Source of the DNA: Escherichia coli
Lineage (GTDB): Bacteria > Pseudomonadota > Gammaproteobacteria > Enterobacterales > Enterobacteriaceae
DNA: 64,000 nt
Direction: 5' to 3' (one strand)
Assembly: GCF_013315695.1 (NCBI RefSeq)
Contig: NZ_CP054353.1
In this document: positions 25,317 through 27,346 of the stretch, one piece after another
Layout of the letters: every line of letters begins with the position of its first letter
Numbering within the stretch: the stretch's first letter is position 1
The notes under the pieces: generated by a model
Database searches by the model: none
Told to the model about the DNA's origin: nothing
Seen by the model: only the letters and a program-made list of their open reading frames with translations
Program-made: the position numbers and the translations under genes

Positions 25317-25332
25317 CATCATTGTTAATTAA

Positions 25333-25366
25333 TTCGACCAGTCAGCAAATATGCTGACTGGTCGAA
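25333..25366. repeat. perfect inverted repeat (15-bp stem, 4-nt loop) just downstream of elaD
   Basis: TTCGACCAGTCAGCA-AATA-TGCTGACTGGTCGAA; no adjacent T-run; further CTGAC/GTCAG repeats at 25380-25410. Confidence 0.6.
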
Positions 25367-25702
25367 CATAGTTTGCTAAAAAGTCATCACTGACTGATGT
25401 CAGTCACACCACCCGCCAGTTCAATCTGCGGGTATTTCCAGCGTATCGCGGCACGCGATTGCTGGTCTGTTGATGTAGTGGATTGTAGTTGCTGACTTTT
25501 CTTACCCTAAGATTTCTGCCCCCTGTCAATTCAATCTGCCAATAAATAACATAATTATTTTTTCCTCATATGAATTCCTTTTTAAAATAGCGAACCCACT
25601 GTAAAAAAACTTTTTGTATATCTCTGCCAACCGTAATAAAATAAACACTCATTACTCATTATAAATAATTATGAAATAACGCCTTTTATTGATAATTTAC
25701 AT

Positions 25703-26674
25703 ATGAAAAAAAAGACACCTCTTTATTTTATATCATTACTACTATCGCTTACTTTTATTATTTTTTACCAACCCTGGGTCAATGCATTACCGCCAACTCC
25801 CCGACACGCAAGTCCTGAGCAATTAGAAAAATCAGTTCGTTATCTTACACAAACTGTGCATCCACGTAGTGCCGACAATATTGATAATCTGAATAGGTCC
25901 GCAGAGTATATAAAAGAGGTCTTTGTCAGTAGCGGTGCCAGAGTTACCTCGCAGGACGTCCCCATTACGGGTGGCCCCTACAAAAACATTGTTGCTGATT
26001 ATGGTCCTGCCGATGGACCGCTGATTATTATTGGTGCGCACTATGACTCTGCCAGCAGTTATGAAAACGATCAATTGACCTATACGCCGGGCGCGGATGA
26101 TAACGCCAGTGGCGTGGCAGGATTACTCGAACTGGCACGTTTGTTACAGCAGCAAGCACCGAAAACTGGCGTGCAGCTGGTCGCCTATGCGTCGGAAGAA
26201 CCGCCCTTCTTTCGTAGCGATGAAATGGGGAGCGCGGTACATGCAGCTTCGCTTGAGCGTCCAGTGAGATTAATGATAGCGCTGGAGATGATTGGCTATT
26301 ACGACTCTGCGCCTGGTAGTCAGGATTACCCTTACCCGGCAATGTCCTGGCTTTATCCCGATCGGGGAGACTTTATTGCCGTGGTCGGCAGAATGCAGGA
26401 TATCAACGCCGTTCGTCAGGTAAAAGCGGCATTGTTGTCATCCCGGGATTTATCTGTTTATTCTATGAATGCCCCAGGGTTTATTCCCGGTATTGATTTC
26501 TCTGATCACCTTAATTATTGGCAACACGATATTCCCGCCGTAATGATTACCGACACCGCTTTTTATCGTAATAAACAATACCACTTGCCCGGTGATGCCG
26601 CAGACAGATTGAATTATCAGAAAATGGCTCAGGTAGTGGATGGGGTTATAACTTTGTTATACAACAGTAAATAA
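25703..26674 (+). CDS. yfbL: M28-family peptidase/aminopeptidase-like exported protein YfbL
   Basis: 323-aa ORF with signal peptide; metallopeptidase-like HYDS..DDNASG..EE motifs. Confidence 0.8.
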   Translation: MKKKTPLYFISLLLSLTFIIFYQPWVNALPPTPRHASPEQLEKSVRYLTQTVHPRSADNIDNLNRSAEYIKEVFVSSGARVTSQDVPITGGPYKNIVADYGPADGPLIIIGAHYDSASSYENDQLTYTPGADDNASGVAGLLELARLLQQQAPKTGVQLVAYASEEPPFFRSDEMGSAVHAASLERPVRLMIALEMIGYYDSAPGSQDYPYPAMSWLYPDRGDFIAVVGRMQDINAVRQVKAALLSSRDLSVYSMNAPGFIPGIDFSDHLNYWQHDIPAVMITDTAFYRNKQYHLPGDAADRLNYQKMAQVVDGVITLLYNSK

Positions 26675-26776
26675 TAAAAATTTCTCGAGGCGGGTCCAGA
26701 AAACGCGACATGTACATTTTATTTTCCCTCGTCTGTTTTAAGATGCGAAACATGAAATTCAACGGAGGAAAATAAA

Positions 26777-27280
26777 ATGGGAATGATTGGCTATTTTGCA
26801 GAAATTGACTCAGAAAAGATTAACCAACTTATTGAGTCTACTCAAAAACCTTTGATGGATAATATACATGACACGCTTTCAGGATTACGCCGACTGGATA
26901 TTGATAAACGCTGGGATTTTTTACATTTTGGCCTGACAGGCACCTCTGCGTTCGATCCAGCGAAGAATGATCCGTTGAGTCGTGCCGTGCTTGGTGAACA
27001 CAGCCTCGAAGATGGCATAGATGGTTTCCTGGGGTTGACCTGGAATCAGGAGTTAGCTGCGACAATCGACCGCCTGGAAGCTCTTGACCGAAATGTGCTG
27101 CGTAAACAGTTTTCCATTAAACGACTCAATGAAATGGAGATTTACCCTGGTGTGACTTTTTCAGAAGAGTTAGAGGGGCAACTCTTTGCTTCGATCATGC
27201 TTGATATGGAAAAGCTGATTAGTGCATATCGACGTATGCTGCGACAAGGGAATCATGCGCTGACGGTTATTGTTGGGTGA
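26777..27280 (+). CDS. yfbM: DUF1877 family protein YfbM
   Basis: 167-aa ORF MGMIGYFAEIDSEKINQLIES... Confidence 0.8.
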   Translation: MGMIGYFAEIDSEKINQLIESTQKPLMDNIHDTLSGLRRLDIDKRWDFLHFGLTGTSAFDPAKNDPLSRAVLGEHSLEDGIDGFLGLTWNQELAATIDRLEALDRNVLRKQFSIKRLNEMEIYPGVTFSEELEGQLFASIMLDMEKLISAYRRMLRQGNHALTVIVG

Positions 27281-27295
27281 TGGGGTCAGGGCACC

Positions 27296-27333
27296 AAAAA
27301 AAACCGCCGAACATGTCGGCGGCTTTCTGACTT
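27296..27333. terminator. bidirectional rho-independent terminator (3' end of nuo operon / yfbM)
   Basis: AAAAAAAA-CCGCCGA-ACATG-TCGGCGG-CTTTCTGACTT; on the minus strand the hairpin is followed by a U8 tract, 14 bp after the nuoN stop. Confidence 0.7.
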
Positions 27334-27346
27334 ACGAACTGACAGC

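Follow-up and report, generated by a model that had tools for sequence, protein, structure and literature searches.

A yfbK pseudogene scar and a short yfbM–nuoN spacer in the strain-variable rbn–nuoN interval of Escherichia coli

Results

Gene organization of the rbn–nuoN interval

The window (the whole 64,000-bp stretch of Escherichia coli DNA analyzed here) was laid out from a six-frame ORF list plus the RefSeq annotation of isolate AF3, which matched the window at all but 7 of 64,000 positions (99.99% identity). The directly observed gene order was rbn (22997–23914, + strand), elaD (24105–25316, +), yfbL (25703–26674, +), yfbM (26777–27280, +), and nuoN (27347–28804, −), the last being the final nuo operon gene and the right-hand edge of the variable interval. 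The elaD–yfbL and yfbM–nuoN spacers were 386 bp and 66 bp, respectively, close to the ca. 390 bp and 66 bp of an earlier reading made from the sequence alone (the sequence-only reading). That reading had given the K-12 gene order as elaD–yfbK–yfbL–yfbM–yfbN–yfbO–yfbP–nuoN, and the MG1655 annotation agreed with it [elaD, yfbK (−), yfbL, yfbM, yfbN (−), yfbO, yfbP, and nuoN (−)]. The MG1655 distances were not equally short, amounting to 1,935 bp for elaD–yfbL and 2,610 bp for yfbM–nuoN; the shortening perceived in the window was real, with net shortfalls of 1,549 bp and 2,544 bp instead of the ca. 1.7 kb and 2.3 kb estimated earlier. The phylogroups of named strains are, here and below, those that we assume for them.

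Comparison with K-12 by blastn gave three aligned portions: (i) window 20001–25426, ending 40 bp within the yfbK 3′ end; (ii) window 25447–27281, corresponding to K-12 from 132 bp inside the yfbK 5′ end to the yfbM stop codon; and (iii) window 27299 onward, corresponding to K-12 from 48 bp downstream of nuoN. NuoN was 100% identical to that of K-12 at the amino-acid level, and the G+C content was 33–50% across the elaD-to-yfbP stretch versus ca. 57% in nuoN.

All three genes between rbn and nuoN were intact: (i) elaD (G+C content 34.7%) encoded a 403-aa ElaD/SseL-type CE-clan deubiquitinase with Pfam matches PF22103, PF02902 (Peptidase_C48), and PF22102 above the cut-offs; (ii) yfbL had a full ORF for a 323-aa M28-family metallopeptidase (Peptidase_M28, PF04389: E = 4.9e-25, 88.8 bits versus a cut-off of 21.3), orthologous to K-12 YfbL with 92.6% identity across its entire length; and (iii) yfbM encoded a full-length 167-aa DUF1877 protein (PF08974: E = 5.6e-34, 118.1 bits, profile positions 1–162 of 163), orthologous to K-12 YfbM with 97.6% amino-acid identity. 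A perfect inverted repeat with 15-bp arms and a 4-nt loop was located downstream of elaD (25333–25366), with a predicted hairpin fold of −36.7 kcal/mol (z = −6.6). K-12 carried the same palindrome between its convergent elaD and yfbK, and it was probably a terminator hairpin shared by the two genes.

The yfbK scar

The elaD–yfbL spacer contained a 183-bp yfbK pseudogene scar (25387–25569, − strand), as recognized by blastn comparison with the yfbK-bearing loci of K-12 and four further genomes. The scar was composed of three pieces, all on the − strand: (i) the final 40 bp of yfbK including its stop codon (25387–25426); (ii) a 21-bp internal piece (25426–25446), equal to K-12 L001 8248–8268 and encoding IRWKYPQ; and (iii) the yfbK 5′ end, namely its first ca. 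123 bp with ATG kept (25447–25569). The 21-bp island was found by a more sensitive blastn, and its colinear place was the same in E. coli ET350, Escherichia albertii, and Escherichia sp. MOD1-EC7003. The pieces were separated by one internal deletion of 212 bp and another of 1,323 bp, and there were three in-frame stop codons: translation from the retained ATG gave MRKK*LCYLLAD*IDRGQKS*GKKSQQLQSTTSTDQQSRAAIRWKYPQIELAGGVTDISQ* (in short form, MRKK*..IRWKYPQIELAGGVTDISQ*), compared with MRNKNII...IRWKYPQ...IELADGVTDISQ* for K-12 YfbK. About 1.5 kb of yfbK, including every domain of the protein (575 aa in K-12), was gone. When K-12 YfbK was searched by tblastn against the 64-kb window, only a 12-residue C-terminal trace appeared, and the window had no ORF with vWF_A (PF12450), VWA (PF00092), and YfbK_C (PF12034). 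The window yfbK is a pseudogene scar and no longer a gene; the sequence-only reading was right about its loss, but where yfbK had been noted as apparently absent, a remnant was still recognizable by blastn and translation.

IS remnants, terminal inverted repeats, target-site duplications, and flanking direct repeats were looked for at the junctions, and none was found. Microhomology at the breakpoints was at most 1 nt, and thus no mechanism could be assigned to the yfbK deletions. A 21-nt imperfect direct repeat (25409–25429/25519–25539, 81% identical), which spanned the junction and the 5′ remnant, had no K-12 counterpart and was judged a chance match. Very likely, yfbK, a gene for a vWA-domain lipoprotein, was inactivated in the distant past by a compound loss of 212 bp plus 1,323 bp, and nonsense mutations followed.

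Distribution and polarity of the ΔyfbK allele

Both breakpoints of the scar were identical in the window, WP9-S17, M21170, O157:H7 (Z1825), and C41(DE3). A 431-bp probe across the ΔyfbK junction matched without interruption in 2,577 (ca. 47%) of the 5,426 complete E. coli genomes surveyed, and full-length yfbK was present in 2,514 of them. Collapse or another assembly artefact as the source of the short intervals has a negligible probability: six independent complete genomes showed ≥99.9% identity over this region, each of the two junctions recurred in thousands of other complete genomes, and neither repeats nor IS elements flanked them.

Intact yfbK was found in E. albertii (six genomes), MOD1-EC7003, B2 strain clone D i14, SMS-3-5, and IAI39. 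Its presence in E. albertii, MOD1-EC7003, B2, and phylogroup F makes yfbK presence the ancestral state and the window state a derived one. The complete E. albertii loci were obtained by exact-protein look-up; an exact-peptide search of genome contigs with YfbL yielded only three loci from Escherichia, its other matches being distant homologues with at most 46% identity, and probably missed other Escherichia species.

The cryptic-clade genome SCPM-O-B-8794 also carried a yfbK remnant, but its breakpoints differed, and it was therefore rejected as a sharer of the window's deletion. This remnant was no closer to one E. coli allele class than to the other (74–77% identity). Its yfbK loss was treated as a putatively independent event, the alternative being that a first deletion was shared and secondary ones came later. 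Among E. coli strains, a single ΔyfbK allele has very likely spread through both descent and homologous recombination.

The divergent patch beside the scar

Sliding identity and an alignment of nine alleles delimited a divergent allele patch (25447–25760), which covered the yfbK 5′ remnant, the yfbK–yfbL intergenic (promoter) region, and the first ca. 20 yfbL codons. The patch displayed 66–70% identity to every yfbK-bearing allele aligned versus 91–97% to other ΔyfbK genomes, with 91–92% in the nine-allele alignment, so that the ΔyfbK allele was ca. 30% divergent from yfbK+ across this promoter/signal-peptide patch; E. albertii and K-12 showed comparable divergence (71% identity) across the same region. 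From ca. 25760 onward, all E. coli alleles aligned were 95–100% identical to one another.

Outside the strain's own clone (ca. six genomes), the nearest relatives of window 1–22000 were SMS-3-5, CE10, and IAI39 (98.6–98.8% identity), which we take to be phylogroup F, and these neighbors suggest that the strain itself is phylogroup F-like. Window 22000–25426 and the stretch from ca. 25760 onward were 95–100% identical to SMS-3-5 and IAI39, both yfbK+, versus only 67–76% for window 25447–25750. Since phylogroup F references with a retained yfbK matched the surrounding background at ca. 100% identity, the ΔyfbK allele was probably imported here by homologous recombination. A patch of ca. 330 bp would have been recombined into a phylogroup F-like chromosome, with crossovers at the yfbK 3′ end (ca. 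25426) and within the first ca. 20 yfbL codons (ca. 25760), so that ca. 1.9 kb would have been swapped for ca. 0.33 kb. The direction of this transfer (ΔyfbK into the F-like lineage instead of yfbK+ into SMS-3-5 and IAI39) and its timing are inferred, the direction from only two or three phylogroup F references. A patch donor with more than 97% identity was not found outside the clone of ca. six genomes.

The alternative of a fresh yfbK deletion in the lineage of this strain, independent of the O157, BL21, and B1-type deletion, could appeal to the nearest flanking relatives SMS-3-5 and IAI39, which keep yfbK, and to SCPM-O-B-8794, where yfbK was lost independently at least once with different breakpoints. 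It is highly improbable, because the breakpoints and the retained 21-bp piece were identical in five genomes of different lineages and because the adjacent ca. 310 bp belonged to the same divergent allele class (66–70% to yfbK+), a state that could not have come from a recent deletion.

The yfbM–nuoN spacer and the yfbN–yfbO–yfbP cassette

The 66-bp yfbM–nuoN spacer (27281–27346) was composed of a 15-bp filler (27281–27295) and a predicted intrinsic terminator of nuo operon on the nuoN strand (A-run/U-run, 27296–27303; hairpin with 7-bp GC stem and 5-nt loop, 27304–27322). On the nuoN strand, the GC hairpin was followed by eight U and lay 24 nt past the nuoN stop codon; its predicted fold was −26.4 kcal/mol (z = −4.4), in support of the terminator that had earlier been placed in this spacer. 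A promoter/terminator pattern scan gave the same numbers as shuffled sequence and missed the nuo terminator, probably since a stem extension absorbs the U-run. Rfam searches of both spacers gave nothing at gathering score (best matches 15–26 bits versus 34–90, E = 0.2–0.9).

In K-12, a 2.56-kb yfbN–yfbO–yfbP cassette filled precisely the stretch from the yfbM stop codon to the nuo-terminator A-run and, as judged by junction comparison, replaced the 15-bp filler TGGGGTCAGGGCACC of the window. The whole spacer, filler included, aligned base for base with those of E. albertii, SCPM-O-B-8794, B2, F, and O157. No yfbN, yfbO, or yfbP DNA or protein was found by blastn between yfbM and nuoN, and tblastn gave only chance-level matches (E ≥ 0.01) elsewhere in the 64-kb window, in keeping with the apparent absence of yfbN–yfbP noted before.

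An uninterrupted short yfbM–nuoN junction was present in 4,214 (78%) of the 5,426 genomes, while yfbN–yfbP was present at ≥80% coverage in 946 (17%); 1,016 genomes had any match to the cassette, and 986 of these matches were ≥99% identical. The named carriers were K-12 derivatives, HS, and H10407, all presumably of phylogroup A. The presence/absence survey that the sequence-only reading had proposed gave full-length yfbK in 2,514, yfbN–yfbP in 946, and the short yfbM–nuoN junction in 4,214 of 5,426 genomes.

A different cassette occupied the identical site in ET350 and MOD1-EC7003: yfbP was absent, and yfbN′ and yfbO′ (ca. 83% nucleotide identity) were accompanied either by an ORF of 191 aa or by one with weak similarity to SMI1/KNR4. 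Different cassettes at one site in K-12 and in ET350/MOD1-EC7003 mark the yfbM–nuoN site as a small insertion hotspot. The yfbN/yfbO cassette of MOD1-EC7003 had 93.5% amino-acid identity to that of K-12, a divergence about equal to that of the flanking genes, and hence the cassette family was not very recent.

The 66-bp spacer is very likely the ancestral, unoccupied state of the site, and yfbN–yfbP was very likely gained later by K-12 and related phylogroup A strains. The case for such a gain is one of parsimony, based on few outgroup genomes, and nothing was lost at yfbM–nuoN in the window because the short junction was orthologous to those of E. albertii and other outgroups. The description of yfbN–yfbP as missing K-12 DNA does not hold: K-12 was the exception (17% of genomes with the cassette versus 78% with the short junction), and the empty site appears ancestral. 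Repeated exact loss of yfbN–yfbP instead of a gain stands as a formal alternative, given that the cassette family is not very recent and that so few outgroups bear on the polarity.

The sequence-only reading had implied that both gaps were deletions from a K-12-like ancestor with yfbK and yfbN–yfbP. K-12 does have both segments, and the yfbN/yfbO-type cassette was not unique to phylogroup A, being present also in an outgroup near E. coli and in ET350. This account was correct for yfbK only, the spacer alignment having largely refuted it for yfbN–yfbP, and as a whole it is highly improbable: the short spacer with its 15-bp filler was shared as an orthologous sequence by E. albertii, one cryptic-clade genome, B2, F, and E, it contained no trace of yfbN or yfbP, and 78% of genomes had the short junction.

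Other arrangements of the interval and their value as lineage markers

At least eight arrangements of the rbn/elaD-to-nuoN interval were found among complete genomes, bearing out its earlier designation as a strain-variable zone. The variation included the following: (i) neither B2 strain clone D i14 nor any of the three outgroup lineages (E. albertii and two cryptic-clade genomes) had elaD; (ii) a further 326-bp deletion inside yfbL was present in O157:H7 and BL21-type genomes; (iii) IS200/IS605, ISEcB1, and IS1 were inserted in the interval of other strains, and none of them in the window; and (iv) in one arrangement, the entire stretch from rbn to nuoN had been removed by a deletion with IS at its borders. 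The elaD-less B2 state agreed with a published survey in which elaD was not found in B2 (PMC12575377).

A probe across the yfbL region deleted elsewhere was contiguous in 3,295 of 5,426 genomes. If all 2,514 yfbK+ genomes keep yfbL, at most ca. 780 ΔyfbK genomes would have intact yfbL, and most ΔyfbK carriers would thus also have the identical 326-bp yfbL deletion. The number of genomes with both ΔyfbK and short yfbM–nuoN junctions was bounded between 1,365 and 2,577.

The hint to strain lineage seen in the short spacers proved weak. It excluded B2, because B2 had no elaD and kept yfbK, and K-12-like phylogroup A, because the latter had yfbN–yfbP; it went no further, the ΔyfbK allele being present in O157:H7, BL21, and many others and, in this strain, probably a recombinant patch in a phylogroup F-like background.

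Discussion

The interval is a small accessory region specific to Escherichia and low in G+C, and the window very likely displays one of its common allelic states, in which an old yfbK deletion and an ancestral empty yfbM–nuoN site, with unrelated histories, are combined. Variation of this sort is ordinary for the pan-genome and can already be seen in thousands of annotated genomes. In a literature search, no paper describing the polymorphism was found, and only the absence of elaD from B2 was documented.

Beyond bookkeeping, the significance is very little, with three practical points: (i) since yfbN–yfbP is a minority insertion, K-12 serves poorly as a reference here; (ii) genes called absent deserve a check for scars; and (iii) a small deletion allele can apparently move between E. 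coli phylogroups by recombination, which makes yfbK presence/absence unreliable as a lineage marker.

K-12 knockouts of yfbL and of yfbO are reported to resist phage N4 (preprint 10.1101/2025.09.29.679331). The decay series, with yfbK lost first and yfbL then lost in most carriers, hints that this divergently transcribed pair may work together, and it may connect to the reported need for yfbL in phage N4 infection. The rbn–nuoN interval might even record a selected stepwise loss of a yfbK–yfbL(–yfbO) module as opposed to neutral decay, because the allele appears ancient, has a frequency of ca. 47% across phylogroups, seems to have been moved by recombination, and was usually followed by the yfbL deletion. 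Selection of this kind is a speculative suggestion that we consider unlikely; if it were true, natural loss could be phage-driven, and the window would be an intermediate with yfbK lost and yfbL kept.

Comparison with other Escherichia loci

The interval of K-12 MG1655 (b2269–b2276) and that of the window shared the same flanking genes in the same orientation, orthologous elaD, yfbL, and yfbM (90%, 92.6%, and 97.6% amino-acid identity, respectively), the elaD hairpin, and the nuo terminator, but K-12 had an intact 1,728-bp yfbK and the 2.56-kb yfbN–yfbP cassette, and its yfbK–yfbL intergenic and yfbL signal-peptide region was only ca. 66–70% identical to that of the window. SMS-3-5 and IAI39 were ca. 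100% identical to the window over elaB to elaD and, once more, downstream of yfbL codon 20 or so, and they had the same short yfbM–nuoN spacer; unlike the window, they harbored an intact 1,767-bp yfbK with an intergenic region of the yfbK+ class, and IAI39 additionally had IS1 between yfbK and yfbL.

O157:H7 and BL21/C41(DE3) shared with the window the same compound yfbK junction, the divergent-allele class, the presence of elaD, and the lack of yfbN–yfbP, but the 326-bp deletion made their yfbL a pseudogene, and C41(DE3) further carried ISEcB1 between yfbM and nuoN. E. albertii and E. coli B2, with the arrangement rbn–yfbK–yfbL–yfbM–nuoN, resembled the window in yfbL, yfbM, and nuoN and in the short spacer with its terminator, while they contained no elaD and kept yfbK intact; this arrangement would represent the ancestral state of the interval.

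Mosaic structure of the elaD-nuoN interval

Short patches within elaD (24850-25000) and within yfbM (26950-27250) shared only 87-93% identity with most of the compared genomes, while their neighbouring segments showed 97-100% identity, which indicates mosaicism at a fine scale across the whole interval. Two E. coli allele classes were also recognized at 25447-25760, a region that includes the yfbK-yfbL intergenic sequence and the signal-peptide region of yfbL; these two classes had a mutual identity of only ~66-70%, with the divergence ending abruptly at about codon 20 of yfbL, and the YfbL N-terminus of the window (MKKKTPLYFISLLLSLTFIIF) differed correspondingly from that of K-12 (MKKIIFAFIILFVFLLPMIIF).

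The elaD segment (23918-25386) was lacking from E. albertii, from two genomes of cryptic clades, and from the B2 strain clone D i14 (loci L033, L003, L004, and L045), and thus elaD appears to have been acquired within E. coli outside B2. At these elaD-less loci, yfbK was located at most ~120 bp after rbn, with a yfbK remnant instead in SCPM-O-B-8794 (L004). The final 27 nt of yfbK differed in B2 alleles, consistent with the elaD insertion having changed the yfbK 3' end.

O157:H7 and BL21/C41(DE3) (loci L037 and L038) harbored, besides the yfbK scar (pseudogene remnant), an identical 326-bp deletion inside yfbL, mapping to 25965-26290 of the window. The same half-coverage pattern at yfbL was presented in ~2,000 of the 5,426 complete E. 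coli genomes surveyed, which suggests that yfbL decay comes after yfbK loss.

An alternative cassette was inserted exactly at the yfbM-nuoN insertion site, the site of the yfbN-yfbO-yfbP cassette in K-12, in each of two genomes: (i) E. coli ET350 (locus L034, 5574-7463) and (ii) Escherichia sp. MOD1-EC7003 (locus L050, 8656-10547). Both versions contained an extra ORF together with divergent yfbN and yfbO but no yfbP; the extra ORF was annotated as SMI1/KNR4 in ET350, and its Pfam matches were sub-threshold only.

Other differences from K-12

The elaA gene (22480-22932) had an annotated length of 150 aa in the window compared to 153 aa in K-12. The spacer separating elaB from elaA was also shorter, at 47 bp in the window against 54 bp in K-12; the B2 allele of elaA displayed only 77-91% identity across 22450-22900. 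A second small accessory islet of the window is a gene pair at 59962-62615 (minus strand), composed of nhaC (Na+/H+ antiporter) plus a trans-sulfuration-enzyme family gene: these two genes intervened between yfcH and rpnB in the window, while yfcH directly adjoined rpnB in K-12.
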